Origin: Gemmatimonas sp. | GTDB lineage: Bacteria > Gemmatimonadota > Gemmatimonadetes > Gemmatimonadales > Gemmatimonadaceae | Reading direction: 5' to 3' | Assembly: GCA_031414535.1 (NCBI GenBank) | Contig: JANNVQ010000057.1 | Coordinates: 64,001 to 128,000 of the forward strand | Length of the DNA: 64,000 nt | Shown: piece after piece, positions 8,264 to 23,449 of the stretch | Layout of the letters: each line of letters begins with the position of its first letter | Numbering within the stretch: position 1 is the first letter of the stretch | The notes under the pieces: generated by a model | The model's database searches: none | What the model was told of the DNA's origin: nothing | Seen by the model: the letters and a program-made list of their open reading frames with translations, nothing else | Made by a program: the position numbers and the translations under genes

Positions 8264-8267
8264 CGGG

Positions 8268-8480
8268 CTACGACCGCGGCTCGTGCAGTCGTCGAAGAAC
8301 CACGCGCAGTGTCGCCCGGGAAGCCACTGGCAGGCGGCGTCCCGTCAGCCGCCAGGCGTCGTCGCTCAATGCCTGCAGCACGAGCAAGCGCTCCTCGGCG
8401 GCGGCCGACGGAGGGGCCGAGGCCTCACGGCTCTGCAGCGAGACCACGCGGACCGTCATCGCACCACGATTGGTACGCAT
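8268..8480 (-). CDS. Small hypothetical partner of the nucleotidyltransferase (putative antitoxin)
   Basis: ~70 aa ORF ending 4 nt before the NTase start, containing EERLLVLQALSDDAW. Start codon uncertain. Confidence 0.5.
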   Translation of the reverse strand: MRTNRGAMTVRVVSLQSREASAPPSAAAEERLLVLQALSDDAWRLTGRRLPVASRATLRVVLRRLHEPRS

Positions 8481-8716
8481 GGTGGGAAATCTAATGCTTC
8501 TGGACGCGGCGCAACCTTGATGGCGCACTCCGTCTTCCCGCCAAGTGCCACCTCCGCCTGCGGAAAGAGCACCTTTGGATGATGCCCACGCCAGCAACGG
8601 CACCAGAGGCGCCGAACTTAGGCGACGGTGGCGAACGCCGTGGTTTCACTCCAGCCTCTCAGGAAATGGAGTCTGCGGTAATCCCCGGGCCGATTCAAAG
8701 TTGGGCGTTCGCGGAC

Positions 8717-8959
8717 CTACGTCGCGGACACCAAGTCAATGAGTTCCTCAACTTCGAGCCCCAATCCGTTTGGCTCATCGGTAGGGTCCAATCCCCGCTC
8801 AATGAGTTCAGCGCTCAAGAGATCCAGCAGAAGCTCACGACCCTCAGCTAAGAGTCCTCCGCTCGCAATTGCATCCACATGAACGACTGCGTCAGCGTTG
8901 CGCCGCTGAATGATCTCTGCTAAGCGGCGAAGTTGCTGTGGGGTAGCACGTATACTCAT
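8717..8959 (-). CDS. Putative immunity protein for cassette A
   Basis: ATG overlaps the toxin stop (ATGA at 8956-8959). Small acidic protein ending ELIERGLDPTDEPNGLGLEVEELID. Confidence 0.7.
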   Translation of the reverse strand: MSIRATPQQLRRLAEIIQRRNADAVVHVDAIASGGLLAEGRELLLDLLSAELIERGLDPTDEPNGLGLEVEELIDLVSAT

Positions 8960-9495
8960 GGCACGATTCTCCACGCGCCGCGGCTCAGCGCCATTGTGGT
9001 GACGACTTCGCCGTCTGTGTTCAGCACCACTCGCGCGTTTCGGCCGACATAGAGCACTTTTCCGCCCTCTTGATGAAGAACTCTTAGGGGATTGGCGACC
9101 GCGTCTCGCATCGCCGCCTGCGTGACTCCGACACCTTCGCGTGATATTGCCTGATTCAGTCCGTGCCGGGTGAATCCCGGGATTTTGCCGCCGATTGGGA
9201 CGTTGAAGACGGCCTTGCTGGCACCCGGGAACTGATCTTCATTGAGTGCCTCAAAGAGCGAGGCGAACGCTCCGAGTGTCTTATTGACCGCACTCGAACC
9301 TCTGCCGGATGCGTTGCGATGCGCCCACCACCCGGATGAACCACGCGGGCAGTCGGACACCGCTTCGGTCTTTCCGTCACCGCCCGCAGACTTTGGGCAC
9401 AGCCCAAACGGATCCGAGAAGTTGACCGGGTCCCCGCCCGCGAAGCCATACGCATTCAGCCCACCCGCCAGCCCGATTGGGTCAAGGTGCGTGGA
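8956..9495 (-). CDS. Orphan Rhs C-terminal toxin cassette A (probable BECR-fold RNase-like); no evident start codon of its own at the repeat
   Basis: In frame STHLDPIGLAGGLNAYGFAGGDPVNFSDPFGL|CPK..., followed by FTRHGLNQAISR...YVGRNARVVLNTDGEVVT. Confidence 0.8.
   Translation of the reverse strand, partial: STHLDPIGLAGGLNAYGFAGGDPVNFSDPFGLCPKSAGGDGKTEAVSDCPRGSSGWWAHRNASGRGSSAVNKTLGAFASLFEALNEDQFPGASKAVFNVPIGGKIPGFTRHGLNQAISREGVGVTQAAMRDAVANPLRVLHQEGGKVLYVGRNARVVLNTDGEVVTTMALSRGAWRIVP
9400..9495 (-). repeat. Rhs core-end repeat, copy A
   Basis: Minus strand reads TCCACGCACCTTGACCCAATCGGGCTGGCGGGTGGGCTGAATGCGTATGGC...GATCCGTTTGGGCTG. Confidence 0.95.
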
Positions 9496-9555
9496 CTGTC
9501 CAGTAAATCAATCGTACGTTCAGGTCGCGGTGCACCGCAACCGTGCCTCGGCGCG

Positions 9556-9960
9556 CTACGGCGCGATGACCTTCACCGTCGGGAAGTAGGTCCGATAGCG
9601 CGCCGCATCTCGCGTCAGCAGCGCGTGGCCGCGGATCGCGGCGTGGGCTCCCACAAAGAAGTCCGGAAGTGGCGATCGCCTGGCTCCACCCGATCGCCGA
9701 TATCGCTGGAAGCATTTCCCCGCGAGGAATCCAGCATCCCAGGGGAGCGCGTCGCGTCGGAAGAACGTCGGCGGCAGTGCCGCCTCAAGATCCTCAATCC
9801 GTGCGAAGCCGACCGAGACCTCGGCATAGATGATCGGATTGATGATTAGGGCCTCCGATTCGGCGGCACGCGCGAGGGCGTCGGCCGACCACCGGAGCCA
9901 CGTCGGGTCCTCGGTTAGCACGTCCAGCAGCACGTTGCTGTCCACCAGGACGCCCGGCAT
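9556..9960 (-). CDS. vapC: PIN-domain toxin, VapC family
   Basis: LVDSNVLLD, IIYAEVS, LPDFFVGAHA and LLTRD acidic PIN motifs. Confidence 0.9.
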   Translation of the reverse strand: MPGVLVDSNVLLDVLTEDPTWLRWSADALARAAESEALIINPIIYAEVSVGFARIEDLEAALPPTFFRRDALPWDAGFLAGKCFQRYRRSGGARRSPLPDFFVGAHAAIRGHALLTRDAARYRTYFPTVKVIAP

Positions 9961-9964
9961 GCGC

Positions 9965-10192
9965 CTACTCGCCGCGGGTCAGCGCGAGAATCTCGTCGGT
10001 ACTCATCGGCACCGTGCTGCGTCCCCGAAGGTGCGCGACCAGCTTGGCGCCGCGTCGCCGACTGCGCCGCAGCTTGCGCAGCACGGCCTGACCGTCCTCC
10101 ACGACGAACTCGACTTCAGTATTCGGCAACAAGCCGAGGCGTTCGCGCACTTCGACCGGGATGGTGACCTGGCCCTTCGTCGTGATTTTCAT
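9965..10192 (-). CDS. vapB: AbrB/MazE/SpoVT-family antitoxin
   Basis: MKITTKGQVTIPVEVRERLGL, immediately upstream of the PIN toxin. Confidence 0.9.
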   Translation of the reverse strand: MKITTKGQVTIPVEVRERLGLLPNTEVEFVVEDGQAVLRKLRRSRRRGAKLVAHLRGRSTVPMSTDEILALTRGE

Positions 10193-10205
10193 TCGAATCG
10201 CCCCC

Positions 10206-10235
10206 CATGAGATGTATTACCATAAGATGTAATAC
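10206..10235. promoter_or_regulatory. Probable vapBC operator (inverted repeat GTATTAC-N8-GTAATAC)
   Basis: GTATTAC at 10214-10220 and GTAATAC at 10229-10235, just upstream of the antitoxin start. The same stretch is an imperfect 15-bp tandem repeat. Confidence 0.6.
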
Positions 10236-10310
10236 TAGCCCGGTACATTTTCATTCACAAGGAGCGATAGAAGCGGGATGGATCCTGCAGGCGAGTTCCC
10301 GCGCTCTTGG

Positions 10311-10850
10311 CTAGCCCTCGAAGTTTCGAATGCGCCGAACAACCCAGGAGCTGTGCCGTGTGCGGCTCAAGTCGACGACGAAGAATCCCCCCATCGTCCT
10401 TGGCGCGTCGAAGTACACGATGGCTTCAAGCACGGCTGCGGACGTCATGCTGCTATCTCCGACGAGTGCCAAGGCAACTGAAAGTGTATCCGATGTCTCT
10501 CCACGGACCCGGAAGCCGGATGAGACGAACAGCTTCGCTGGCGATCGACTTGCTAGTCGAAAGCGAGATCCGATCGTGGCGATTGCCGACATCTTGTTTG
10601 CTTGGAACGGTGCCACCACAGGCGCGCGGCCGATGACGGAGTCGACAACGATCACTCTACAACCCATCTCCGCGCAAAGTGAGTCGAGAGGAGCCGCTCG
10701 GAATGCGGTCGCTGCCGCTGCAACTGCAGCGGCCTGGGGTGACAATGAGGTGCGATCGACTGTTGGTCCGATGCGACAGGATGCGGTGAGCAGCAAGGAG
10801 GCCGCGAGGAGTCGCAGCGCTCGGCGGTCAAGGGTTGCGAAGGCAGCCAT
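10311..10850 (-). CDS. Putative lipoprotein immunity protein for cassette B
   Basis: MAAFATLDRRALRLLAASLLLTASC signal peptide with lipobox-like end; overlaps the toxin 3' end. Confidence 0.7.
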   Translation of the reverse strand: MAAFATLDRRALRLLAASLLLTASCRIGPTVDRTSLSPQAAAVAAAATAFRAAPLDSLCAEMGCRVIVVDSVIGRAPVVAPFQANKMSAIATIGSRFRLASRSPAKLFVSSGFRVRGETSDTLSVALALVGDSSMTSAAVLEAIVYFDAPRTMGGFFVVDLSRTRHSSWVVRRIRNFEG

Positions 10851-11334
10851 TCGGCACTCCTTGGAAAGGTTGTTCGCAGTGCGCGTACTTGCTGTTGCGT
10901 TCGACGATCCCACTCAGATGAGTAGCCTCGTGCCACGCAATTCCGCCAATCCCGCTCCGCCTCGTCTCGCGGTGTGATGGTCGGACGTGCGCAACGCCGC
11001 GAGCGCCTCCGAACCGCTTTCCAATCTCTCCCATCAAGCCGACGTCGTCGTCGCGATCGAACGACCAACCGCTTCCGTAGCAGAGCTGGCCGCAGCCCGC
11101 GTCGTCGCTGTCGAACAGCACGAACAGGTCGGGTGATTGCTCCAGCTTGCTAAACGTCGCATCTGCTTCGCTGTTCGACTTGCGTATTCGAGCAACCTCC
11201 TTTTGGAGGCGCTCGCCAACAATCTTTAGGTCAGCGGCGAGCCCGAACGGATCGTCGAAGTTGACCGGGTCCCCACCCGCGAAGCCATACGCATTCAACC
11301 CACCCGCCAGCCCGATCGGGTCAAGCTGCGTGGA
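10828..11334 (-). CDS. Orphan Rhs C-terminal toxin cassette B (HExxH zincin-like metallopeptidase)
   Basis: STQLDPIG...FDDPFGL followed by a domain containing IAWHEATHL. Confidence 0.8.
   Translation of the reverse strand, partial: STQLDPIGLAGGLNAYGFAGGDPVNFDDPFGLAADLKIVGERLQKEVARIRKSNSEADATFSKLEQSPDLFVLFDSDDAGCGQLCYGSGWSFDRDDDVGLMGEIGKRFGGARGVAHVRPSHRETRRSGIGGIAWHEATHLSGIVERNSKYAHCEQPFQGVPNGCLRNP
11239..11334 (-). repeat. Rhs core-end repeat, copy B
   Basis: Minus strand reads TCCACGCAGCTTGACCCGATCGGGCTGGCGGGTGGGTTGAATGCG... Confidence 0.95.
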
Positions 11335-11387
11335 CGGACTCGGACCTCATTTCTCGCGCGCAGTCGAGGGACCGGCTGATCGCACGG

Positions 11388-11816
11388 TCAACCGATTGAA
11401 ATCACCAGCCCCTCGGGAATCGAGAGTCTTGCCGTGGTCCCGTCCCCGGCAACCATTACCCACTCAGGTCCCTCCGCACAACCCGCTGTCTCTAACACCG
11501 AATCGTCATCAAACTTCAACGCTAGCGCACCCACCAAATCGTCGGCCTCGACTTCGACTATCCGACGCCCGGTCAGTTTGGCGACTGCTGCACGTAGCTG
11601 GCCGGCTTTACCACCCAGCATCTCACTGGACGCCAAAATGCTCGCTCCGCGTCGCCATCGCCAGCAATCCTCAAGCACGATACGCCACGATGTATCAGAG
11701 GGAGACGAGGCGGCATCAAACACCACCCGCAGTGCAGACCCGATGGGATTCGAAGCGACTACGCATTGCAAACCTACGGCCTTCTGGAGCATGCGCGTGA
11801 CGGTAATGGACGTCAT
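11388..11816 (-). CDS. Putative immunity protein for cassette C
   Basis: ATG directly abuts the toxin stop; 142 aa, no signal peptide. Confidence 0.65.
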   Translation of the reverse strand: MTSITVTRMLQKAVGLQCVVASNPIGSALRVVFDAASSPSDTSWRIVLEDCWRWRRGASILASSEMLGGKAGQLRAAVAKLTGRRIVEVEADDLVGALALKFDDDSVLETAGCAEGPEWVMVAGDGTTARLSIPEGLVISIG

Positions 11817-12263
11817 CTATTCGTGCTCCCGGTCTGTGTATTTCCGTTGCCTGCACAACTCCGTTGCCTCTTCGACGATGTCGTTGAACGAGACTGCTCC
11901 ATCTGCCCCGGCTCTGGTATCCAGCTCATCCACTCGCTTATAGAGTTCATCGCGCCCAGTGTCATTGAGCCTGCAGCTCATTCGGCGCTCGGCCTGTCGA
12001 ATTGCATCTCGGTATTGCTTGTTCTGCCTTGTGTTAGAGGCGAACTCAAGCACTAACGCACCGGTCACCGCTATGGCACTGGCAACGACGGCCCGAGCGA
12101 CGAGACGCAACAGATGGGCGCACGCGAAGGAGACGGGAGGAACAAGGCAAACCGCGGGAATTGCCAGTGTACCGTAAGGATCCGAGTAGTTGATTGGATC
12201 ACCATCCGCAAACCCATAGGCATTCAGTCCCCCCGCGAGCCCAATCGGGTCAAGCTGCGTGGA
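11817..12263 (-). CDS. Orphan Rhs C-terminal toxin cassette C (hydrophobic segment plus alpha-helical domain, family unassigned)
   Basis: STQLDPIG...YSDPYGT, a hydrophobic helix, then NTRQNKQYRDAIRQAERR. An in-frame TTG lies at 12272. Confidence 0.8.
   Translation of the reverse strand, partial: STQLDPIGLAGGLNAYGFADGDPINYSDPYGTLAIPAVCLVPPVSFACAHLLRLVARAVVASAIAVTGALVLEFASNTRQNKQYRDAIRQAERRMSCRLNDTGRDELYKRVDELDTRAGADGAVSFNDIVEEATELCRQRKYTDREHE
12168..12263 (-). repeat. Rhs core-end repeat, copy C
   Basis: Minus strand reads TCCACGCAGCTTGACCCGATTGGGCTCGCGGGGGGACTGAATGCC... Confidence 0.95.
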
Positions 12264-12395
12264 TGGACCCAACCTTAAACACTTCCATCATGGCTAGCTC
12301 GAATTGCGGCTAATGAAGGGCGACGAGAATAAGTTGGCTCGCTCGGTTAACGGCAAGGTGGCGAAACCACACTCAATCGATGGGCCAATCTCTGA

Positions 12396-12716
12396 CTACA
12401 ACTCACGTCGACGATTCTCTTCATCAAAAAGGTCCGCAATGAGTTGCTCGAGTGGCGGCCGCACACTCTGTGCGTGAGGGCCAATGTGCTCGAACAGCTC
12501 TCCTCCCAGCTCCGCCAAGTACACCCGAAGCGCGTCCGCGCGTTGCGCTTCGCTGACGTGGGCGATGCGCTCTATCGTCTCCGCTGCATGAGTCAAGCCA
12601 GCGTGGAGGTCCGCTAGATGATAGGCGACATCGTCTCCGCGTGGCGATCCCAGTAGTGCGCGAAATCGAAGATGAAGCAGCTCTCGGAGTTGCTTGTTGT
12701 CGGCAGATGAGGGCAT
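12396..12716 (-). CDS. Putative immunity protein for the currently attached Rhs toxin domain
   Basis: ATG 7 nt after the rhs stop, preceded by purine-rich GAGAAGGGA; ~106 aa, helical. Confidence 0.7.
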   Translation of the reverse strand: MPSSADNKQLRELLHLRFRALLGSPRGDDVAYHLADLHAGLTHAAETIERIAHVSEAQRADALRVYLAELGGELFEHIGPHAQSVRPPLEQLIADLFDEENRRREL

Positions 12717-12723
12717 TCCCTTC

Positions 12724-15700
12724 TCAAGCTTCCAGTGGAGGAGTGACAGCATCCAGTCGGCTTTGCCAAGCGTCGACTTGCTCCTTGTAGCGCGCATTCG
12801 TGCGGCCCTTCATGCTTTTCAAGTGGTCTCGAGCTTGGTTAATCCATCCTCGAATCTCTCCACGGTGATGATTCGCATCTCTAGCACCGGGATCCTCTCC
12901 AACGGCGCCGAGATGGCCCTCAATGTTCGCTCGCAATTGTTCGATTTTGCCAATTGCCCAGCCTTGTGCACCACTCGCCAAGACAAGCCCGTCCGCGATT
13001 GCCCCTAGACGTGCACCGAAAGCGGCTCCCGCACTAACGCCGGCTGCCCCTCCCGGAATGGCTCCAAATCCAGCGCCAGCGATGAAGCCGCCACCGCCGC
13101 CCGTCATACCTCCCATCAGCGCTCCCGTAATCGCGCCCACGGAGGTCCAGAATCCTGGGCAGTCGCGGGGATCGTTGTCCCGTGGGGGACACAGTCCAAA
13201 CGGGTCCGAGAAGTTGACCGGATCCCCACCAGCGAAGCCGTACGCATTCAGCCCACCCGCGAGCCCGATCGGGTCAAGCTGCGTGAACTGTCCCGTCGTC
13301 GGATTGTAGTAGCGGTTCCGCAAAAAGGTCAGGCCCGACGCGTCACGCCGACCACGCACCAAACTCCCGAACCAGTTGCTAAACAGAACCGGGTCGGCGC
13401 CTACGTCTCTTCGGTACGCGCTGACTGAAGCAGCTAGCCACTCCGTCGGACAGCGCCCCGGCGTGAACGTCGTGCAATTCGTCCCATCTGCCAGATTGCC
13501 AAAAGCAATGTCTCCACGCCAACCGGCCTGAGGCGTCAACGTCGTCCAGCCGGAGTCGGGCCGGAGCTTCGCAAGATGAGCCGGCGCATCGACACCCAGT
13601 CCGTGCGCGTAAAGCACGACGCCAAAGAGCAGTGGATAGGTCGGGTCCGTCCAGCCACTCGTCGTGCCATCCTGCGCCGCGATGCCCTCGCCCTCTAGAA
13701 CGGCAGCCGTCGCGTTCGCTTGTCCGCTGCTGCGGATCTCCGCTAACACTTGATCGCCATCGTAAACAGTTCGCTCGATGTATGCATCGCAGGGGCTCGA
13801 GCAGGTCGGCTCGATCTTTCTCACGCGCACGAGGACGCGCCGTCCAAGCGCGTCGTAGCGGTACTCACTCGACGTTCCGGCGACGCCATTCACGCCTTCA
13901 GCGTCTTCATGCGACATCAGTCGTTCATCGGCGCCGAAGTAGGAACGTGCGTTCCGCAGTACGGTCGATGCATCCGACAGATTGGTGCCGCGCGTGTCAC
14001 GCTCTGCGGTCGAGGTGACGTTCCCGCTGGCATCGTGCTCCAGCGCCAGCGACCAGATGTACCACGAGGGGTGGCACGAATGCACGAGCGAGGTGGCGCA
14101 GTTGCTTCCAGTATCGGCGAGCACGCCGCCGGTGAGACGGAGACCAGAGAACGTGTGGCGACGGGTACGATTGATTCCCGCTACCATATCTACATCGTGT
14201 GTGTAACGAAGCGTGCCGATGCCGTCTACCAAGAAGGCCTCGCTGCTGAGTCCGCTGGCAAGTCCCGTGACGCTCGCCAACGCACCAAGTCCAGCATATT
14301 CCAGCGACACCGGCGTGTCACCAGAACTGACGCGAATGACTCGCCCACCTGCGTCGTAGCGCAGCGTGTCAGCGGCCGGGTGACCACCGCTTCCGACCCG
14401 GCGCAACACCCTGCCCTCGCGGTCGTATGCAAGGTTGAGAACCACGCTCCCTGGCGCCGTCGTGCTCGTCAGCTGCCCTGTAGCATCGTAGGCGTAGGTG
14501 GTCTGCAGCGTCCCACCGCTAGCGCTCGGATGCGTCAGTGTGGCAAGCTCACCGCGAGACGAGTACGCATACTGCTGCAAGCAGGCACCGCTACAGGGAT
14601 CAAGCTGGGTGGGTAGCGTCAGCGAGATGCGGCGCCCGAGGTGATCGTAACCGTACTGCAGTTGATACGAATGCGCGTTCCAGTCGCTCCCGGTCTCACT
14701 GAACGCGCCGGCGTGCCGATCGCCGCCTCCGCAGGCGTTCGGAGCCTCCGTCGCATACTTCCTGATGATCTGCGTTTCGGAGAGCAACGCACCATTTGGC
14801 GCGTAGCTTCGCCGTATCCGCGCCCAATTATTGTCGGCTACTCTTGTCTGCCCAGACGCATCGTACGCGAACAGCGCCGTATCCACGCCTATGCAGCGCG
14901 TAGACGCATCATCTAAGATGGGAAAGGTGTAGGTGCAGAGAGTTCCGTACCAGTGACACAGCGCGTTGCCTTCGCTCGCGGATGGCGTCACGCGTCGCGT
15001 GAGGCGATTCAGCGCATCGTACTGCATCGCGATGACGAATCCACGGGGCTTAGTGGCCTCAATGACGTTTCCGCTGGCATCGTACGTCGAGTAGTTTGCC
15101 CCACCGCCCGGCTCCGACGCCAACGTCGCGCGGCCGAGCGAATCGTACTGCCATGTTGCGACAAGGGTGTCGCTTGCCCCTGCCGTGGCTCCATTGACCG
15201 AGAAGCGCCGGCGGTGCTGCGTAACTCGTCCCATGGCGTCGTACACTTTGCTCACTCGCACCCAGTCGGCGAGGATGATGCGGCCGTTGGCCAGCGTATC
15301 CACCGGTCCCCGCGTTACCTGCGCGCTATCGCGTCCGAGCGTATCGTACCAAATTGAGTCCACAACTCCGTATTGCACAACTAAACTGGAGTCGGTGCCT
15401 CGGGATCCGGTATCGCGAGGCGTGTACAGCCGGACGGGCCTCCCGACATTGTCATTCACCGACAAGGAGACGAAGCCAAGTGGCGATACCGTCTTGCGGA
15501 GATTGCCGCGCTGGTCGTAAATGAAGGTTGTAACGCCGCTGTCAGGCTGAGTAATCGAGAGCGGCAGACGCGCGCCGGATGCCGTGGTCGTATACGCGAA
15601 GGTCACCCGAGTCGTACTGCTGCCACCGCGTTGTTGCCAAGCGAGACTGGAGTCACTGTTGTAACTAGCGACGGCCAAGGTATCGAACTTGGTGATATCC

Positions 15701-17985
15701 GCCGCAGCGCCGGAGCGTGCCCTTATGCGCTCAATGCGGTTCAGCGTGCTGTGCCATTCGTATTCCGTTAGCGCATTACCGCTCGCACTTCCCGACGCGC
15801 CTCCATAGGGAGCCAAAGTGGCTACCGAGTCGACCAAGCCCCGAGAGTCGTAGCTTGCAACGGTACTTAGCCGCGTCGGACTAATGACGCGTTCGGGGAG
15901 CCCAGCCCAAGCTGTTGAATAAGTTATCTGTGTCTCGCGTCCAAGGGCATCGCGGAGACGAACTACGGAGCCGTGGCGGTTTACCCACATCCTGCTCTTA
16001 TCGGCGACATCGCTCCGAGGACCGTCAACCTGTGTAAATGTCGAATCGAGTGCAGTGGGGGTCCACCCCTTGGACTCGCTCGGTTCGATTGCCAGGACGT
16101 TGCCGAGTGGTCTCGTCGCCGTGATGACGCGCCGCGCAGAATCGAAAGCAAAAGTGGTCCGCGCCCCGGCTCGATCGCTGATGGCGTTGATCTCATTTGC
16201 GTATGGTGAGGACGCATACTCAAACCGCGTGGTATCCCGATCGGGATCGATGATGCGCGTCAGCCGCCCGCCTGGACGAAGTAGGATCGTTACGCGATTG
16301 CCGGGAGCCGTTATCGTCACCGAATCGCTGGCATATGCGAAGGCGTACTTCATCGAATCCACGAGCGATAGTGACGTGTCCGCAAGCGGGAGATGCATCG
16401 CCAACAGAGAGTCAGTGGTACCCGCATACACGAAGCGCGTTACGTGCCGGTCAATTGTGCGTGTGGAATCGTGACGTCCGGCCGAGTCGTAGAAGACGCG
16501 CGCATGCTCCGCTGTGTGCCGAATGTACGTACTTCCCGACTGCGTGATGCTGTCCGGGAGCGCGAAGGCGGTCGGGACCTTCCACACGCTTCCCGACTTC
16601 ACGTATCGGCGCACACTTCCATCGCCACCAATCCACAACAGCTCTGTAGAGGATCGAATCCGGAGCCGCTCAAGCCCGGCAAGCCACCATCCCGCGCCGA
16701 AGCGCGAGGCACTGTGGTTCACGATATACAGACGGCCCGTATCCGCACTCGTGTGCGACTGATTGGAGGATGTGAACTGCACGCGATACCGGTACATTCC
16801 GGTAGCCACGGTACAGCCACTAAACGGCACAACCACGCGCCGAACATTTCCTGCTGCTCCCCAGGCCGTGCCCGCTGTGCTGCGACTTCCACAAGTGGCG
16901 GACGTATCCGTACGCACAATGGAAGTCGTGCCGTCGGTCGGTAGACCAATATCAGAGCGAAGACGAATATCCGCTTGCACCAATGGGATAGGCCGTGCAT
17001 GCGCTGAGTTGTAGAGCAGGACCGGAGCTCTCGTGCGACCCATCGTGCGAACACTCACTAACGCGTGTACGATTCGTAAGTCGCCGCATTCGCTCGCGGC
17101 ATGTGGCGTGAGCGCGATAGTGACGCATGCGTTGCGCAGCAGATAGTCGCCTGCGCCAGGCGCATGACCGAAGAGATAGGCGCCAACAGCGGGAGCGGCC
17201 GTAACCGTGATATCCGTCCACGCGGAATCCCTGATGGCGGTCTCCGCTGAGCGAACCGCAAGCAGTCGCAGCAGTCCTGACGCGCCGTTGCTGTCCGACG
17301 CCGTGTAGCTCACAGTCACCGTCGAGCTCGCGCCGGCGGCAAGTGCGCTAATGGTAGAGCTCGGTGTAATTGTGCAGCTCGCGTAGATCGCGCCGGACGG
17401 ACAACCGATCGCTGTCAGCGCGAAGGTAGCGGTATCGTTGCCTGTATTGGTGACCGTAAAGCGCTCACTGCGTGAGGCTGACGGGAGGGCCTCGACGAAG
17501 CCTTGCTCGGATACGACGGCCACCGACCGTCTCGCAGCTGGCGGAAAGTAGGTCTTGATGCTCTGGTAGAAGTAATCGCGAAGGCTGTAGATGTGAGCGT
17601 TTACAATCACCGGTCCTGTGGTCGGAGTCACGCTGACCGTTCCTACCCACTTCACAAACACTTCGTCTGACTGATTCCCGAAGAAGTTGCACTCCGCTGG
17701 ATCGGCATTCTCCATCGTGAAGTCGCCAGTGACGTCCACGTAGCTGGCGGAGGTGGCGTAATTCCAAGTTCGAATCTGGATGGTGGCGAGGTTGATCATG
17801 TTGTCGCCGGCTTCGTAGGCGCAGGCCAGCACCGTCACCGTTACTGAGCCACTCAGGACCACGGACGACAGCGAGGGAGAGACAGTAAGCGTTGGCTCCG
17901 TCTGTGCGCTCGCCTGCGGTGCGAGACTGGCGACGAGCGCAGCCGATGCGGTAACGCGCATCAAGTGTCGGGCAATAGTTCTCAT
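12724..17985 (-). CDS. rhs: Full-length Rhs/YD-repeat polymorphic toxin with predicted Sec signal peptide
   Basis: 1753 aa with many YD repeats (YDSRG, YDQRG, YDALGRR). Rhs core RNRYYNPTTGQFTQLDPIG...DPFGL is followed by a variable C-terminus (glycine zipper plus helical domain). N-terminus MRTIARHLMRVTASAALVASLAPQASA. Confidence 0.95.
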   Translation of the reverse strand: MRTIARHLMRVTASAALVASLAPQASAQTEPTLTVSPSLSSVVLSGSVTVTVLACAYEAGDNMINLATIQIRTWNYATSASYVDVTGDFTMENADPAECNFFGNQSDEVFVKWVGTVSVTPTTGPVIVNAHIYSLRDYFYQSIKTYFPPAARRSVAVVSEQGFVEALPSASRSERFTVTNTGNDTATFALTAIGCPSGAIYASCTITPSSTISALAAGASSTVTVSYTASDSNGASGLLRLLAVRSAETAIRDSAWTDITVTAAPAVGAYLFGHAPGAGDYLLRNACVTIALTPHAASECGDLRIVHALVSVRTMGRTRAPVLLYNSAHARPIPLVQADIRLRSDIGLPTDGTTSIVRTDTSATCGSRSTAGTAWGAAGNVRRVVVPFSGCTVATGMYRYRVQFTSSNQSHTSADTGRLYIVNHSASRFGAGWWLAGLERLRIRSSTELLWIGGDGSVRRYVKSGSVWKVPTAFALPDSITQSGSTYIRHTAEHARVFYDSAGRHDSTRTIDRHVTRFVYAGTTDSLLAMHLPLADTSLSLVDSMKYAFAYASDSVTITAPGNRVTILLRPGGRLTRIIDPDRDTTRFEYASSPYANEINAISDRAGARTTFAFDSARRVITATRPLGNVLAIEPSESKGWTPTALDSTFTQVDGPRSDVADKSRMWVNRHGSVVRLRDALGRETQITYSTAWAGLPERVISPTRLSTVASYDSRGLVDSVATLAPYGGASGSASGNALTEYEWHSTLNRIERIRARSGAAADITKFDTLAVASYNSDSSLAWQQRGGSSTTRVTFAYTTTASGARLPLSITQPDSGVTTFIYDQRGNLRKTVSPLGFVSLSVNDNVGRPVRLYTPRDTGSRGTDSSLVVQYGVVDSIWYDTLGRDSAQVTRGPVDTLANGRIILADWVRVSKVYDAMGRVTQHRRRFSVNGATAGASDTLVATWQYDSLGRATLASEPGGGANYSTYDASGNVIEATKPRGFVIAMQYDALNRLTRRVTPSASEGNALCHWYGTLCTYTFPILDDASTRCIGVDTALFAYDASGQTRVADNNWARIRRSYAPNGALLSETQIIRKYATEAPNACGGGDRHAGAFSETGSDWNAHSYQLQYGYDHLGRRISLTLPTQLDPCSGACLQQYAYSSRGELATLTHPSASGGTLQTTYAYDATGQLTSTTAPGSVVLNLAYDREGRVLRRVGSGGHPAADTLRYDAGGRVIRVSSGDTPVSLEYAGLGALASVTGLASGLSSEAFLVDGIGTLRYTHDVDMVAGINRTRRHTFSGLRLTGGVLADTGSNCATSLVHSCHPSWYIWSLALEHDASGNVTSTAERDTRGTNLSDASTVLRNARSYFGADERLMSHEDAEGVNGVAGTSSEYRYDALGRRVLVRVRKIEPTCSSPCDAYIERTVYDGDQVLAEIRSSGQANATAAVLEGEGIAAQDGTTSGWTDPTYPLLFGVVLYAHGLGVDAPAHLAKLRPDSGWTTLTPQAGWRGDIAFGNLADGTNCTTFTPGRCPTEWLAASVSAYRRDVGADPVLFSNWFGSLVRGRRDASGLTFLRNRYYNPTTGQFTQLDPIGLAGGLNAYGFAGGDPVNFSDPFGLCPPRDNDPRDCPGFWTSVGAITGALMGGMTGGGGGFIAGAGFGAIPGGAAGVSAGAAFGARLGAIADGLVLASGAQGWAIGKIEQLRANIEGHLGAVGEDPGARDANHHRGEIRGWINQARDHLKSMKGRTNARYKEQVDAWQSRLDAVTPPLEA
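13192..13287 (-). repeat. Rhs core-end repeat, copy inside the full-length rhs gene
   Basis: Minus strand reads TTCACGCAGCTTGACCCGATCGGGCTCGCGGGTGGGCTGAATGCGTACGGC...GACCCGTTTGGACTG. Confidence 0.95.
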
Positions 17986-18231
17986 CTTGCGTTGCTCCGC
18001 ATTCGAGTGAGGTCTATGGTGCGCCGTTCGTTTTCAATGCTCGTGCAGGTACAAGCGTTGTCAAGCGCACGTTCATGGCGATGACCCACTCACGTGAGCT
18101 TGGTCACGGCGACAGAAATGCGACAGCAACGGCAGTGCGCGCCGCTGATGGGACGAGACATGTGGAGACAGCATCGACGATGCTTTCCAACGCGTTCGCG
18201 CGATTGTTACTATGATTCTTGCATGAGCCAC

Positions 18232-18327
18232 TCCACGCAGCTTGACCCGATTGGGCTGGAGGGTGGACTGAATGAGTACGGCTTCGCTGAAGGCGATCCA
18301 ATCAACTTTTCGGATCCGTTTGGGCTG
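18232..18327 (+). repeat. Rhs core-end repeat, copy D (inverted)
   Basis: TCCACGCAGCTTGACCCGATTGGGCTGGAGGGTGGACTGAATGAG... Confidence 0.95.
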
Positions 18328-18717
18328 TGTCCTAAAGCGGCGGGAGGCGACGGGAAGACGGAGGAGTACTCCGACTGTCCTCGTGGAAGTTCCGGATACT
18401 GGGCTCATCAAAGCATGCAGGGAAACGGCGGGTTGCTCACTGAGGTGCGCGGTACCACTGCATCATGCGATGAGAGCACGGCGTGCTTGGCCGTCGCGAT
18501 TGCTGGAGGCGCGTATGTCGGGACGCTCGTTGCCGTCGAAGCCGGGGCATCTAGGCTGGCCGCTACAGCGCTTGCGCTGATGCAGTCGAACAGATACCTC
18601 CGCATCGGCGTCGGACGACATAACGGCAGGCGTGTATTTCGGGCTGCGGGCAAACTCGTGCAGAAGATCAAGAAGGACGGTCACATCGACTTCTGGGACA
18701 TGGGGCCTCTACCATGA
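18232..18717 (+). CDS. Orphan Rhs C-terminal toxin cassette D (basic C-terminal domain, possibly a nuclease), inverted relative to rhs
   Basis: STQLDPIGLEGG...DPFGL|CPKAAGG...SNRYLRIGVGRHNGRRVFR...GHIDFW. An in-frame ATG lies at 18223. Confidence 0.8.
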   Translation, partial: STQLDPIGLEGGLNEYGFAEGDPINFSDPFGLCPKAAGGDGKTEEYSDCPRGSSGYWAHQSMQGNGGLLTEVRGTTASCDESTACLAVAIAGGAYVGTLVAVEAGASRLAATALALMQSNRYLRIGVGRHNGRRVFRAAGKLVQKIKKDGHIDFWDMGPLP

Positions 18718-18989
18718 CAACCGAACTTTCGGACTTTCAACGAGACGCGCTCGCCGATATTCGAGACGTCCTGAAGGATGCCGGTCGCTCATCCGAGTCG
18801 GAATCGGTGTTGGGCAACCAGGAGAAGTACGTAGCGATTGCATTCGGCGGCTACAAGGCCCTACTGTACGCGGACGGGGCTGAGTTACTCGGCAACGGGC
18901 TGGATCGCCGATTCGAGAAGTACGATTTCGACTCCCTGGACGACCTTCGCATTCACTTTATTCTCGAGCTGCGCCAGTTAATGACCTAA
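18714..18989 (+). CDS. Putative immunity protein for cassette D
   Basis: ATGA overlap with the toxin stop; small and acidic. Confidence 0.7.
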   Translation: MTTELSDFQRDALADIRDVLKDAGRSSESESVLGNQEKYVAIAFGGYKALLYADGAELLGNGLDRRFEKYDFDSLDDLRIHFILELRQLMT

Positions 18990-19070
18990 CCCGCCGGGTT
19001 CTGCCTTGGCGCGCCGGCGCCATCGGCATGGGCCCTCGCCGCTCCGCTGTAAGCTCAGCCGTCGCGTCCA

Positions 19071-19166
19071 TCCACGCAGCTTGACCCGATCGGGCTGGCG
19101 GGTGGGTTGAACGCGTATGGCTTTGCGGGTGGGGACCCGATCAACTTCTCGGATCCGTTCGGGCTG
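19071..19166 (+). repeat. Rhs core-end repeat, copy E (inverted)
   Basis: TCCACGCAGCTTGACCCGATCGGGCTGGCGGGTGGGTTGAACGCG...; 19068-19135 is identical to 22293-22360. Confidence 0.95.
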
Positions 19167-19634
19167 TGCCCCCATGACCCAGCTCGGCCATGTCCTGCTT
19201 GGACGGGAGCCAAGGCCGCGGCTGTCGTCTCAAGGTTGGCAGATTGGGCTTCGAACATGGCCGTACTGCCGAGCATCACCGTTACAGCCGGGCCCATACA
19301 GGCTGAGTTCAGCGCGGACGGAGTGGCAGTCACCGGCAGTGCACAGATGGCGCTTGCGCTGACCCTCAACGGGACGGTCGGGCGGGGCGCAGGGGAACTC
19401 GGGACCCTTTCAGTCGGCGGACTGGTCGGGACAGGATTCGTCGGCGGAATGACTGCAAGTTTCGACGCCAAGTCCAAGAATCTTGAAGGAGTGACGTACA
19501 GCATCGGCATTGGCTTTGCCTTGCCTGTCGCGAAATCGATGGAGTTGTCGGATGCCGGCGCGAAGCTTCTTTCCGGCGCCGGTACGGTGGGTGTTGGACT
19601 GGGCGAAGGAAGAATGAAAGCGAAGAAGCAATGA
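19071..19634 (+). CDS. Orphan Rhs C-terminal toxin cassette E (Gly/hydrophobic-rich, possibly membrane-active)
   Basis: STQLDPIG...DPFGL|CPHDPARPC, then Gly/Val/Ala-rich strands with no obvious catalytic motif. Confidence 0.8.
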   Translation, partial: STQLDPIGLAGGLNAYGFAGGDPINFSDPFGLCPHDPARPCPAWTGAKAAAVVSRLADWASNMAVLPSITVTAGPIQAEFSADGVAVTGSAQMALALTLNGTVGRGAGELGTLSVGGLVGTGFVGGMTASFDAKSKNLEGVTYSIGIGFALPVAKSMELSDAGAKLLSGAGTVGVGLGEGRMKAKKQ

Positions 19635-19918
19635 CCAAGAAATTTCCGTTCAACGACGGCACCGACGACGTGCCTCTGCGGCTCATCGCCACGATTCCAA
19701 TCTGGATGCTGCGCGCAGCGGTGGGCGGCGTAGCTGGTGTCCGGATGTTTGTGCTTGTACTGGCCGTCGATGGGCTGCTGATTTTGGGAACTTGGATAGC
19801 AATCGCGCCATCTGTGCGCTCGAATTCCGAGGTGGGCAATCCCGCCTCAGGAGAGCGGTTCGTACTTTTGCCGCTGGTCTTGGCGGGAGTGTTGACCTTG
19901 TTCGACTTGTTTCCGTGA
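19631..19918 (+). CDS. Putative membrane immunity protein for cassette E
   Basis: ATGA overlap with the toxin stop; 2-3 hydrophobic segments. Confidence 0.65.
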   Translation: MTKKFPFNDGTDDVPLRLIATIPIWMLRAAVGGVAGVRMFVLVLAVDGLLILGTWIAIAPSVRSNSEVGNPASGERFVLLPLVLAGVLTLFDLFP

Positions 19919-19988
19919 CTTTGATGTCTGTCGTCGGTGCACACGCACAGTACCCCAGCGGCACGCCTACTGGCACTCATTAGGATAG

Positions 19989-20084
19989 TTCACGCAGCTT
20001 GACCCGATCGGGCTCGCGGGCGGGCTGAATGCGTACGGATTCGCGGGCGGGGATCCGGTCAATTTCTCGGATCCATTCGGGCTG
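19989..20084 (+). repeat. Rhs core-end repeat, copy F (inverted)
   Basis: First 32 bp are identical to the copy in rhs; the 9 remaining differences are all synonymous. Confidence 0.95.
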
Positions 20085-20543
20085 TGTCCACAAGACGTGA
20101 CGGGAAAGCCATGTCAGAATCCGCTGGGCAATCTGGCGCTGAACGTGAGGCCCGGCATAGGAGGATTCGAGCTGAACTCGCAGCGTACGGCGGGCGTTCA
20201 CGGCGGCATCGACTTACTCGCGCCCAAGGGCAGCGATGTGACGGCCGCTTCTGACGGAGTGTTTGAACGACGAAGCGATCCCAACGGGCTTGGTGATTAC
20301 GCCGTCGTGTGGCACGGAGGGAGCGCAACGGTATACGGCCACCTCTCGGGTTTCGCAGACGGGCTCCGAACGGGCGATCGCGTTCGCGCAGGACAAGTCA
20401 TCGGCAAGACGGGTGACAGCGGGAACGCGAAGGGAACGCCTGACCACCTTCACTTCGAGATTTGGACAGACTTCAAGACGGTTGGTCGAGGTGGGACAGC
20501 CGGCCGACGTGACCCAGAACGTGAACTTCGTAAGGCGCCGTGA
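19989..20543 (+). CDS. Orphan Rhs C-terminal toxin cassette F (M23 family peptidoglycan endopeptidase)
   Basis: FTQLDPIG...DPFGL|CPQD..., with M23 motifs HGGID, YGHL, GQVIGKTGDSGN and HLHFE. An in-frame TAG sits immediately before the repeat. Confidence 0.88.
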   Translation, partial: FTQLDPIGLAGGLNAYGFAGGDPVNFSDPFGLCPQDVTGKPCQNPLGNLALNVRPGIGGFELNSQRTAGVHGGIDLLAPKGSDVTAASDGVFERRSDPNGLGDYAVVWHGGSATVYGHLSGFADGLRTGDRVRAGQVIGKTGDSGNAKGTPDHLHFEIWTDFKTVGRGGTAGRRDPERELRKAP

Positions 20544-21109
20544 AGAACAATCTTACGTTGACTAAGCGAGCAGTTGTGCTTCCTCTGCATTTGCTGTTGA
20601 TGAGCGGAGCCGGTTGCGATAGAGCACCTGCGCCTGCGGCGGCACTGCCGCAGAGAACTGAGTTCGCGGTGCAGTTCGATTCTACCGTCGGTGCGGACTC
20701 CACCGGACTTCGATCCGCGCTCATCGCATTTGGTGACTCGCTCCACCTGACTCACTTTCAGGCAAGCATCAGTCAGTTCGGTGGCGCTCCTACGAGATAC
20801 TTCGCGTTTCTAATTGGTCCTCCGGCGTACAAAAGCGGAAACGTTCAGTTCGCGTTGCTCACTGCGCGCGATGGGGCCTTTGCGGTGAAGGACCTTTTCG
20901 ACACGGGCGTCCCGTCCGGTCCAGTAGGTATCGCACTCGAGGCACTCGCTGACTTCGACTCGGACGGTCTTCCCGATGCGCACTACTGCGACTTTAGTTT
21001 GGCCAGTGACTCCACTCCGGTATCGCGTGTGCTGGGATACGGAGGCGCTGGATGGTATGCTGTTCAAACTTCGAAGGCGGTTCGATGTCGAGCGGACACC
21101 AGTCGCTAA
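20540..21109 (+). CDS. Putative lipoprotein immunity protein for the M23 cassette F
   Basis: GTGA overlap with the toxin stop; signal peptide ending LLMSGAGC. Confidence 0.7.
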   Translation: MKNNLTLTKRAVVLPLHLLLMSGAGCDRAPAPAAALPQRTEFAVQFDSTVGADSTGLRSALIAFGDSLHLTHFQASISQFGGAPTRYFAFLIGPPAYKSGNVQFALLTARDGAFAVKDLFDTGVPSGPVGIALEALADFDSDGLPDAHYCDFSLASDSTPVSRVLGYGGAGWYAVQTSKAVRCRADTSR

Positions 21110-21361
21110 TGCGAGCCGCTGCACTGCCTAACCTTAAGTTCTGCTGCAGCGGCGCCGGCGCTGGCAGCAGCGACTCGGGTTCGGCGGGTCGTCTCGGGTT
21201 CGCTCGCCAACGTGTGCCCCCGCGACAACCCCATTGGTCGGGTCGAATCGGCGCGGGGTTTGCCGGACGCTCGATTGCTCAATCGCGCCCCGCCCCCTCC
21301 GACACACACACAGCGCGTACCGACTCGACTCGCGCAGAAGCGGACCGCCCGCGAGCCGTGC

Positions 21362-21946
21362 TCAGCGCGGGGTCAAACAACGCGCGAGCAAGTCGCTGAC
21401 GCCGAGGACGGGGGCCCATCGATTCAAGACCGTGCGGTCGAGTGCGTCCTCCTGCAGCGCGACAATTGCCGCCACGTCGCGCCACTGGCGCTCCGAGACC
21501 TCGCCCCCCCGGCGGTACCATTCCAGCTTGCGCAACAGTGTGTGCTCGGCGGTGTCGAGCCAGAGCGACCCGGTCGCTGGCGGGGGCACGGGCACCGCCA
21601 CCCGCGTGCGCAGGCGCTCGTGATCAAACGCGTCATCTCCCGCCACGAACACATCAACCTTCACCCCGGCCTGCAGGTGCACGAGGTTGAAGGTTGTGCC
21701 GAGGCGCACTGCGTCGCGCGCAGCGTCCGCGTCCACGTAATAGTCTCGCGCGAGCGCGGCGACGACCCGACTCACGGTGCTGACGCGGAGGTCAGCGACG
21801 AGATCCACATCCAGTGTGGCGCGTGGTTCGCCATGGACCGAGCTCGCGAGCGAGCCGCCAATCACATACGGGACGGCGGCGGCCTCAAGCTGCTGCGCCA
21901 CGTCAAGCGCGACCGCGAGGACGTCGAGTTTGGGCGGCGGAATCAC
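21362..21946 (-). CDS. Nucleotidyltransferase-like protein (TA-like)
   Basis: YVIGGSLASSVHGEPRATLDVD and LLRKLEWYRRGGEVSERQWRDV; GTGA overlap with the upstream small ORF. Confidence 0.75.
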   Translation of the reverse strand: MIPPPKLDVLAVALDVAQQLEAAAVPYVIGGSLASSVHGEPRATLDVDLVADLRVSTVSRVVAALARDYYVDADAARDAVRLGTTFNLVHLQAGVKVDVFVAGDDAFDHERLRTRVAVPVPPPATGSLWLDTAEHTLLRKLEWYRRGGEVSERQWRDVAAIVALQEDALDRTVLNRWAPVLGVSDLLARCLTPR

Positions 21947-22194
21947 CGTGGGGAGCGCGCATACGCGCGCGCCGCGAGTGCGGAGCCGAGCCGGCGCTCG
22001 ATGGCCGCGCGCTCGAGCTCCTCCAGGGCGAGCGTCGGCCGGCGGTGGCGTAACCCCTCGAGTTCCAGCCACAGCACCATCGCCGAGACATCGCGTACCA
22101 GCGCCAGCTTATCGGTCGACGACAGCGCGCGCCACGCAGCTCGCTGGCGCGCAGCGGCGTCTGGAGTGGTGTCGAGGAGGTGGCTGGAGCGCAT
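21943..22194 (-). CDS. Small partner of the nucleotidyltransferase (putative antitoxin)
   Basis: DTTPDAAARQRAAWRALSSTDKL; 83 aa; its stop overlaps the NTase start. Confidence 0.6.
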   Translation of the reverse strand: MRSSHLLDTTPDAAARQRAAWRALSSTDKLALVRDVSAMVLWLELEGLRHRRPTLALEELERAAIERRLGSALAARAYARSPR

Positions 22195-22295
22195 GCTGTA
22201 AAGGTCGCGCAGATGCTGGGGGTCGCGCCACTGGTCTGGGCGGCGGGCGCAATTGCCGTCGGTCGACGCGCGGTTATGATTGGGGAGCGGGCCCA

Positions 22296-22391
22296 TCCAC
22301 GCAGCTTGACCCGATCGGGCTGGCGGGTGGGTTGAACGCGTATGGCTTTGCGGGTGGGGATCCGGTCAATTTCTCCGATCCGTTCGGGTTG
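22296..22391 (+). repeat. Rhs core-end repeat, copy G (inverted)
   Basis: TCCACGCAGCTTGACCCGATCGGGCTGGCGGGTGGGTTGAACGCG... Confidence 0.95.
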
Positions 22392-22865
22392 TGTCCGCCT
22401 GAAGAGACAGGGCGGCCCTGCACTGCGGGCGGTGTCGACTACAGGAGTGTTCGGGGAAAATCGACCGCCGTCCCATCAATGGCGACGTATGTCAGTTCGT
22501 TGGCGCGCGATCTCGGCTATCACATCGTAGTGACGAGCGGAGATCGTGACCGCGTCCCAAGTGGCGGAGCGACTACCAGCAACCATTTGATTCCTTCAAT
22601 GAATCCATCTCGAACAGGAGCGGTCGACTTTAAGGCATACACGCCGAATGGGCAGATGGTGCCGATGGGCAAGCTGTTTAGTGAGTCGCTGGACGCCGCA
22701 TCAACCGAATCCAGTCACGCACGCCTGATTTGGCACGACGTTGGCACAGTGACGGGTACGCAGCACCTGCATGCGGACAAGAGCACCGATGGCCACCGCT
22801 ATGAAGCGGGAGAGAAGAACACGAGGGGCAGAGCTGTTTACCGGCCCGTCGGGGGCAAGCCATGA
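22296..22865 (+). CDS. Orphan Rhs C-terminal toxin cassette G (M15/LAS-type Zn peptidase, cell-wall peptidase-like)
   Basis: STQLDPIG...DPFGL|CPPEETGRPC, then VTSGDR...GGATTSNH...AVD...HLHAD. Confidence 0.8.
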   Translation, partial: STQLDPIGLAGGLNAYGFAGGDPVNFSDPFGLCPPEETGRPCTAGGVDYRSVRGKSTAVPSMATYVSSLARDLGYHIVVTSGDRDRVPSGGATTSNHLIPSMNPSRTGAVDFKAYTPNGQMVPMGKLFSESLDAASTESSHARLIWHDVGTVTGTQHLHADKSTDGHRYEAGEKNTRGRAVYRPVGGKP

Positions 22866-23449
22866 TGCGGAACTCGACACTTGGCATGCTTGTTCTCGGA
22901 GTCTTCTCCCTGATTGGGTGCACAACCAAAGAAGAGCCCGCCAACCGCAGCGGTGCCAGCCAAGAATCTGCCGCGGACTGGATACTCGACTCTGGTCAGT
23001 TTAGGAATCGAACGTCACACCGGGTTGAACCTGTTCCAAGCAGTCTTCCGGAAAACATCTCCGCGCTGGAGGATGTGGATGGTCCCGATGGTACAGAGTT
23101 GTACACCTACATCTTGCTTGGCTCTGATACGGTGGGCGTCTACTTGTGGTCCACAGCACGAAGACTCGAACGACTCCGAATCCTAAGCTCCCGAGTGCAC
23201 ACGCCCAGTGGTGGCCACGTCGGCCTGACCGCTACGGCTCTTGCAGAGAAGGTGGGAGAACTCGAAGTGATAACTACTGAGGAGGGCGTGCTCGTTTGGG
23301 GCACGCGAGATCGCGAGTTCAGCTTCGTACTCGGCGCTGGAACGCAGCCGCGCGATAGCAGCGTTTTGAGGTCTCAAGGCTTCGTTGCGAGCGACACCGT
23401 CCAGATGATTCTTTGGTCGCGCAATCGGGTAGCGCGACAACGCAAGTGA
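22862..23449 (+). CDS. Putative lipoprotein immunity protein for cassette G
   Basis: ATGA overlap with the toxin stop; MMRNSTLGMLVLGVFSLIGC lipobox. Confidence 0.72.
   Translation: MMRNSTLGMLVLGVFSLIGCTTKEEPANRSGASQESAADWILDSGQFRNRTSHRVEPVPSSLPENISALEDVDGPDGTELYTYILLGSDTVGVYLWSTARRLERLRILSSRVHTPSGGHVGLTATALAEKVGELEVITTEEGVLVWGTRDREFSFVLGAGTQPRDSSVLRSQGFVASDTVQMILWSRNRVARQRK

Follow-up and report, generated by a model that had tools for sequence, protein, structure and literature searches.

A candidate 28-bp tyrosine-recombinase site in the coding end of the Rhs core of a Gemmatimonas toxin-tip array

We analyzed a 64,000-nucleotide stretch of DNA from Gemmatimonas sp. (assembly GCA_031414535.1, contig JANNVQ010000057.1, positions 64,001 to 128,000; hereafter the window), in which a full-length rhs gene, a set of orphan Rhs tips and a tyrosine recombinase gene lie together. 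A 26-bp motif that recurs at the start of the tips is likely, at a probability of about 0.8, to cover the hexamer and the right arm of a 28-bp core site for a tyrosine recombinase, at which Rhs tips are switched. The recombination site is real, is located at a hexamer upstream of the palindrome highlighted by a first-pass annotation of this DNA, and is previously undescribed as far as the literature was searched. Comparison of related loci revealed how the site is built, tied it to one recombinase clade and showed that exchanges have taken place there in relatives. The first-pass annotation had favored site-specific crossover over random homologous displacement; this view gains support from the association with a recombinase, from the controls, from the dyad symmetry and from the mapped switch points, although the annotation had misplaced the site.

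The repeated motif and the anatomy of the site

The 26-bp motif was detected in exactly eight copies in the window, four per strand, when none were expected (100 shuffles): at 9470-9495, 11309-11334, 12238-12263 and 13262-13287 on the minus strand, and beginning at 18232, 19071, 19989 and 22296 on the plus strand. No ninth copy was found in the 3.7-Mb genome with up to 5 mismatches allowed. All eight copies were in frame with the end of the Rhs core, and the reading remained open for 144-185 codons downstream of all eight sites, which all lie at one codon. Since one copy sits inside the full-length rhs gene, the orphan cassettes number seven, not eight. Site positions are given throughout relative to the first base (position 0) of the Asp codon of the first Asp-Pro-Ile-Gly motif. 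The contrast previously described between third codon positions fixed in the motif and free downstream was borne out by alignment of the eight copies, with synonymous differences in 3 of 55 codons at -9 to +9 versus 44 of 174 at +12 to +78 (Fisher p = 0.0009, which is indicative only, the copies being related). Codon bias could be set aside only in part as the cause: two of the fixed codons are ones that the genome uses in a minority of cases (frequencies of roughly 0.12 and 0.14), by a crude null in which long frames on both strands were counted and the copies are related. The start of homology to the core proved less abrupt than described, and the homology does not begin from nothing, as (i) the 11 bp upstream of the boundary are 57% identical to those of the core, (ii) positions -17 and -32 are invariant in all eight window copies, and (iii) the orphans at 9495 and 19989 match the core for 8 bp further upstream.

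The site was next compared among related loci. With the window recombinase, 60 related genomes were searched and 15 places were fetched, with three similar matches left unfetched. A search from the Rhs side, in which 52 of 301 genomes matched (G078 being counted only in that tally), added four recombinase-linked arrays (G072a, G072b, G127a and G332d) and gave 17 control loci, one of which was dropped later; G332c, first used as a control, carries a recombinase of the clade described below and was removed before the upstream-homology comparison. All loci compared are related rather than independent. In 94 copies from the 11 recombinase loci with at least three copies each, third positions departed from the locus majority in 1, 0, 10, 2, 1 and 3 copies at -10, -7, -4, -1, +2 and +5, respectively, compared with 21 at +8, 16 at +11 and 14-34 further downstream. 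Positions +8 and +11 thus vary like background third positions, and the conserved zone stops near +7, halfway into the palindrome. Differences within loci were seen in 0-1 of the 94 copies at -10 to -5 versus 20 at -11 and 10 at -4. When 99 copies from 14 recombinase-linked loci were considered, the hexamer at -10 to -5 was found to be identical in 95, while three shared one locus-fixed variant and one was degenerate. Complementarity of the flanking arms was highest around a center at -7.5, the middle of this hexamer (0.56 in orphans, 0.45 at the next best center and 0.36 in controls), and -7.5 was the best center in 11 of the 14 loci; under the rule used to separate cores from orphans, a few intact cores were still counted with the 92 'orphans' of this arm analysis, which diluted the signal. 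A half-integer dyad center implies an overlap of even length, which by the invariance is 6 bp. The layout is an 11-bp arm, a 6-bp hexamer and an 11-bp arm (28 bp), as is usual for Xer-type core sites.

This arrangement bears on the palindrome that had been proposed as the core of the site. As described in the first-pass annotation, the decamer at +2 to +11 is a perfect palindrome in five of the eight window copies, and its two variant forms are mutual reverse complements; it is also perfect in 41 of the 99 recombinase-linked copies, and an accessory binding role for it is possible. That the palindrome is the crossover center is, nonetheless, scarcely credible: its own positions +8 and +11 vary as freely as the background, it is absent in G127a, G032, G012a, G012b and G332d (0 of 6 copies in the last), it is perfect in 10 of 41 control copies, and in pairs of sites that share a left flank, differences already appear at -4 or +5, to the left of or inside it. 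The symmetry axis at -7.5 lies 14 bp upstream of the palindrome center, and the palindrome forms the outer end of the right arm.

Half of the site, its left arm, falls outside the 26-bp motif, upstream of the boundary drawn previously. Orphan left arms are mostly non-coding, with stop codons within 15 codons in many. Mere decay of a former core would be expected to leave undirected changes; instead, the changes observed were directed. Where the core is known (nine loci), locus-level changes from it in the left arm ran toward the complement of the right arm in 25 of 30 cases, versus 21 of 53 in the 12 bp outside, and core bases were retained at 262 of 348 positions if complementary versus 141 of 345 if not. 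Within the window, the orphan consensus is symmetric at 9 of 11 positions and the core at 6 of 11. A sister subtype was identified in G332d, from another family, with its dyad at -6.5 (0.80). In 14 of 78 metagenome loci the nearest enzyme falls in the clade, and seven of these had sites; after removal of two near-duplicates, the remaining five loci formed a held-out set with a pooled best center of -6.5, with 23 of 41 changes toward the complement. The edge of invariance was likewise shifted by 1 bp in the held-out loci and G332d. Separately, the orphans of G028a (L001) and G028c (L006) were found to share a further conserved stretch at about -48 to -28, upstream of the left arm, and two forms of the codon at -3 to -1 coexist within one locus; this stretch may represent an accessory site.

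Link to one recombinase clade and traces of exchange

The gene at 23568..24518 (minus strand) encodes a tyrosine recombinase of 316 amino acids (aa) in which the catalytic residues R166, H262, R265, H288 and Y297 are present. Its best NCBIfam match was the XerC-like PRK01287, below the cut-off, and only generic XerC-family clusters were returned from the ESM Atlas. The chromosomal XerC and XerD equivalog scores were not reached (196 and 194 bits versus cut-offs of 335 and 330), nor was that of the IntI integrase (TIGR02249, 86.6 bits versus 265), and the protein branched apart from the two aligned Xer-type homologues of the host in a quick tree of 113 recombinases. Plasmid records matched the recombinase in 96 of 72,556 cases at E ≤ 1e-20, and none of the 25 listed was an annotated shufflon recombinase. 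The predicted start of the gene overlaps by 1 nucleotide the stop codon of an anti-sigma-like gene in an extracytoplasmic function (ECF) sigma operon (24518-26054), and the recombinase may therefore be co-transcribed with this operon and stress-regulated; no homologue of the sigma or anti-sigma gene was detected in the other fetched loci. Named matches to the neighboring sigma factor were 83-85% identical and came from Gemmatimonadaceae, which makes that family the probable one of the host.

Closer homologues of the recombinase in the 60 related genomes were 36-55% identical, and Rhs orphan sites were found beside 10 of the 15 fetched places; of the other five, two lay outside the clade and three were on contigs of 3.5-20 kb. 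When recombinases beside arrays with sharp-starting orphans were placed in the tree, 19 of 20 formed one clade (support of 99 in the Shimodaira-Hasegawa-like approximate likelihood ratio test, SH-aLRT) within a wider XerC-like group. Upstream of the site, orphans were homologous to the core at the DNA level over a median of 2 bp where a recombinase was linked (25 bp or less in 63 of 68 comparisons) and of 115 bp in controls (60 bp or more in 16 of 25). Homology of at most 25 bp was seen in 6 of the 25 control comparisons, which as judged by eye were mostly between divergent paralogues. Only housekeeping-level recombinase matches were found in the eight control genomes searched.

Traces of exchange were detected in pairs that share one flank of a site and differ on the other. 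The assemblies L147 and L149 are free of mismatches over 12,009 bp, beyond which their cassettes differ, starting at +5 of the site; the stretch common to different sites is probably too short for an ordinary assembly misjoin to have produced this pair. Among 135 sites compared, five pairs have the same left flank and different cassettes, with the first mismatch beyond the left arm at -4, -4, +5, +6 and +11, while in five pairs with the same cassette and different flanks the last mismatch on the left was at -13 in two and one pair was uninformative. The informative pairs bracket the crossovers to -12 to -5.

These data can be set against homologous recombination, the model published for rhs loci. 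In the sections available to us, Koskiniemi 2014 (PMC3967940) proposes rhs recombination over 522 bp, and the rhs literature (PMC2935791, PMC3967940) invokes homologous recombination with no integrase known to co-occur; rhs is unmentioned in the portion of PMC8138268 that was available. Under this alternative, only homologous recombination on the 96-bp repeat would operate, conservation would stem from constraint on the protein, choice of codons and gene conversion, and the recombinase would be part of a co-located mobile element. Consistent with it, 2 of the 10 swap pairs switch at the 3′ end of the repeat, and related PRK01287-like recombinases lie near Rhs fragments with an intact core end at 34 of 64 out-of-clade metagenome loci. 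However, homologous recombination alone does not explain (i) the gain in complementarity of non-coding left arms; (ii) the joint 1-bp shift of the dyad and the invariance edge; (iii) a core length that is fixed only with the clade enzyme; and (iv) the switch by +5 between L147 and L149. We consider it quite improbable as the full account. The out-of-clade enzymes showed a regularity of their own: in 17 of the 30 loci with a same-strand downstream match, several of them near-duplicates, the PRK01287-like gene ends 151-184 bp upstream of the Rhs core-end motif (L143, L146, L165, L177, L178, L180, L184, L196, L197, L199-L201, L203, L212 and L216-L218), which suggests that a wider recombinase family integrates into rhs genes at a fixed upstream point.

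Several observations weigh against a tip-switching recombinase site as proposed here. The loci G028b, G011 and G018 do not peak at -7.5, and two single-orphan held-out loci do not peak at -6.5. Nine of the ten swap pairs come from one genome, G127, and two of the five same-cassette pairs (G127a) differ up to +77 or +89 and switch downstream of the site, indicating that homologous exchange or conversion also occurs. In G332c, orphans with an intact core sit next to a clade recombinase that lies at the end of a contig, and L069 (Vitreimonas) appears to have sharp-starting orphans with an enzyme outside the clade. The genomes G340 and G196 (93% and 97% complete) have sharp-start orphans with no recombinase above housekeeping-level similarity. 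These last two cases would also fit a use of the site by the host XerC/XerD as a pseudo-dif, with the adjacent recombinase incidental, and the geometry of dif resembles the 11-6-11 layout. Yet most orphans in the eight control genomes with only Xer-level recombinase matches keep a long or intact core, the arms are inverted copies of each other, as would be anticipated for one enzyme, and the recombinase clade tracks the arrays; we regard a host Xer site as very improbable. In L069 (12000-13200), from the Alphaproteobacteria, two Rhs orphans with altered upstream codons lie beside the out-of-clade recombinase, and their inner arms appear by eye to be complementary around the same -7.5 center; an independent origin is possible.

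Present-day rearrangement was examined in assembled Logan contigs of four runs, and such contigs drop rare variants. No strand-switching (inversion) joint was seen in the contigs of any of the four runs, and in the probable source run three sites were bridged by single contigs, leaving no abundant alternative there; both findings count further against active switching. The other five sites of that run, that of the core included, are contig breaks, so the present pairing of core and tip is without independent confirmation; uncovered cassette bins in run X3 and sparse cover in run X4 carry no weight either way. A metagenome scan revealed no same-species genome with another arrangement (recombinase identity at most 57%). 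A relative with 92-94% identity has the same core, last cassette and recombinase, with the last cassette and recombinase contiguous as in the window, and has different sequence after the repeat.

This continuation into other sequence past the repeat, together with the lack of inversion joints, would suit a real site that serves mainly for cassette insertion and excision, integron- or tvr-like, with inversion rare or frozen and the array an archive rather than a fast switch. Site orientation was also single in 9 of 19 recombinase loci within the fetched DNA (mixed in 10), including G127a with its 22 direct sites, duplicated multi-cassette blocks and three recombinase copies. Conversely, in the window and in G072a and G072b, many or all of the orphans face the opposite way to the core, which could use them by inversion only, and contigs would lose rare inversions. 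The archive overlaps with tip switching at the 28-bp site rather than opposing it; as the main use of the site we find it unlikely, though worth keeping in view. A long tandem array of ~381-bp units was noted beside the Rhs array of G028c (L005:1-6650).

Proposed mechanism and relation to known systems

In the mechanism we propose, the codons of the conserved Rhs core end double as a 28-bp site, and the recombinase at 23568-24518, the presumed catalyst, would bind both arms, cleave at positions predicted from the layout and exchange strands across the hexamer; the hexamers of partner sites would have to match. Because every site is at the same codon, a crossover would fuse the 1,566-codon core in frame to another tip and its immunity gene. 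As the core site (minus strand) and the four plus-strand sites are inverted relative to each other, one inversion would give the core any of four tips, while the remaining three would be reached by two inversions with no DNA lost and with the bodies of the outermost cassettes staying fixed; loci with all sites in the same direction would excise and re-insert circles. If switching takes place in the window today, at whatever rate, it would give a little-studied phylum an antibacterial weapon under phase variation that is reversible and loss-free. More broadly, and at somewhat short of even odds, we suggest that a dedicated Gemmatimonadota recombinase clade both switches the Rhs tip by inversion in a clonal population that keeps its immunity genes and excises or captures cassettes as circles through the same 28-bp coding site, and that it may descend from the wider PRK01287-like family integrating upstream in rhs. 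How orphan Rhs tips come onto the delivered protein is a long-standing question, for which the prior answer was slow homologous recombination that needs a duplication first or deletes the old immunity gene; a candidate enzyme and a 28-bp site make it directly testable. The system is also predicted to offer single-subunit recombinases with frame-open sites in two natural site subtypes.

The closest likeness was to the shufflon of R64 (Rci, sfx, pilV), as portrayed in passages of PMC11852207 and PMC3414803, where a tyrosine recombinase is also beside in-frame C-terminal cassettes in both orientations, and the left arm of the sites also varies while their core and right arm are conserved. The features of a shufflon found in the window are a constant 5′ part with alternative in-frame 3′ parts, inverted sites and an intact tyrosine recombinase. 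The window differs from R64 in that (i) the cargo is Rhs toxin tips and immunity genes on a chromosome-type contig; (ii) the site is 11-6-11 and not the 12-7-12 of sfx; (iii) the left arms are partly symmetric, and more so in orphans, whereas the sfx left arm is non-specific; (iv) the enzyme ends 19 aa after Y297 and, judged by this length, lacks an Rci-type C-terminal domain; and (v) the invertible DNA includes the constant 5′ part, with direct sites present in many loci. Classical rhs loci similarly have a full-length Rhs followed by orphan tip and immunity modules with a common core end, unlike the window in the fixed length of that core, the mixed orientations and the linked dedicated recombinase found here. 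At the pneumococcal tvr locus, as outlined in part of PMC6265443, the recombinase TvrR also shuffles gene parts via circles at direct repeats, and the locus likewise contains toxin-antitoxin homologues; by that description, it is set apart by shuffling hsdS specificity domains. Bacteroidales rAID/polyimmunity loci and integrons resemble the window in that conflict genes are arrayed, with conserved motifs, next to a tyrosine recombinase. According to the excerpts available, the rAID/polyimmunity arrays hold co-oriented immunity genes only, with intergenic motifs, while the present site is inside coding sequence and would alter the toxin protein; in contrast to integrons, the sites here are 28-bp dyads inside the reading frame and the enzyme fails the IntI model. 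No site-specific exchange of Rhs tips was found in the open full-text literature searched, outside of which lie most subscription papers and supplements.

Cassettes and neighboring genes of the locus

The full-length Rhs/YD-repeat gene (12724..17985, minus strand; 1,753 aa; PF05593, TIGR01643 and TIGR03696 above cut-off) is the sole full-length rhs gene in the genome, and its N-terminus appears by eye to be signal-peptide-like. Its site is at 13269..13296 (left arm 13296-13286, hexamer 13285-13280, right arm 13279-13269), with 6 of 11 arm positions complementary, and its current tip spans 12724-13287. The presumed immunity gene of this tip (12396..12797, minus strand; 133 aa) overlaps the rhs end, is assigned its role from position and had no family match. 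Together with the orphan site at 18223..18250, the site at 13269..13296 flanks the rhs core as what by arrangement would be a 4.9-kb invertible segment.

Three orphans share the minus strand with rhs. The leftmost site (9477..9504, hexamer 9493-9488) has 4 of 11 complementary arm positions and two right-arm substitutions; its tip (8956-9495) and presumed immunity gene (8717-8974) form a cassette at 8717..9495 whose body is outside the outermost site. The second site (11316..11343, hexamer 11332-11327; arms 6/11) opens the cassette at 10311..11334, consisting of a tip (10828-11334) with an HExxH motif and a downstream gene (10311-10913) with a lipoprotein-like N-terminus, both noted by eye and with no family match. 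The third (12245..12272, hexamer 12261-12256; arms 8/11) precedes the cassette at 11388..12263, with a tip at 11817-12263 and a downstream gene at 11388-11816 that gave a weak, below cut-off match to DUF6188.

On the plus strand, the site at 18223..18250 (hexamer 18234-18239; arms 5/11) leads into the cassette at 18232..18989, with a tip at 18232-18717 and a downstream gene at 18714-18989. This orphan has an in-frame ATG at -21 (18223-18225) and may be translated by itself. The site at 19062..19089 (hexamer 19073-19078; arms 8/11) is followed by the cassette at 19071..19918, in which a glycine-rich hydrophobic tip (19071-19634), with no family match above cut-off, precedes a small hydrophobic gene (19631-19918). 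At 19980..20007 (hexamer 19991-19996; arms 4/11) is the site of the cassette at 19989..21109, comprising a tip (19989-20543) and a downstream gene (20540-21109) with a lipoprotein-like N-terminus; a Peptidase_M23 match (PF01551, E 3.6e-20) was obtained for this tip. The rightmost site (22287..22314, hexamer 22298-22303; arms 7/11) belongs to the cassette at 22296..23449, whose body is outside the outermost site; its tip (22296-22865) gave a weak Peptidase M15 match (E 0.059, below cut-off), and the downstream gene (22862-23449) has a lipoprotein-like N-terminus. Overall, a clear family was identified for one of the eight tips (M23) and a weak one for another (M15), searches of Pfam, NCBIfam and PDB being mostly blank as to tip function; a small abutting or overlapping gene follows each tip, and most of the tips are presumed to be toxic. 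The cassettes at 9318-9498 and 18229-18409 were 78% identical over 181 bp, far past the common repeat, and thus have a common linker before different tips; such a linker was also seen in G012a and G167.

Other genes are interspersed with the cassettes. A promoter and terminator scan was uninformative (5 promoter-like matches versus 3.9 expected). Between two of the sites on the minus strand, a PIN/VapC-like toxin gene (9556-9960) and a small AbrB-like antitoxin gene (9965-10192), the latter assigned by eye, make up a module at 9556..10192. A two-gene insert with no family match occupies 21362..22296 (minus strand), also between sites, and its 236-aa gene (21362-22072) has homologues of ~60% identity next to the G012a and G072b arrays. 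Counting a further module at 7817-8500, toxin-antitoxin-like modules were thus noted at 9556-10192, 21362-22296 and 7817-8500, between or beside the sites, where they may stabilize segments against deletion.

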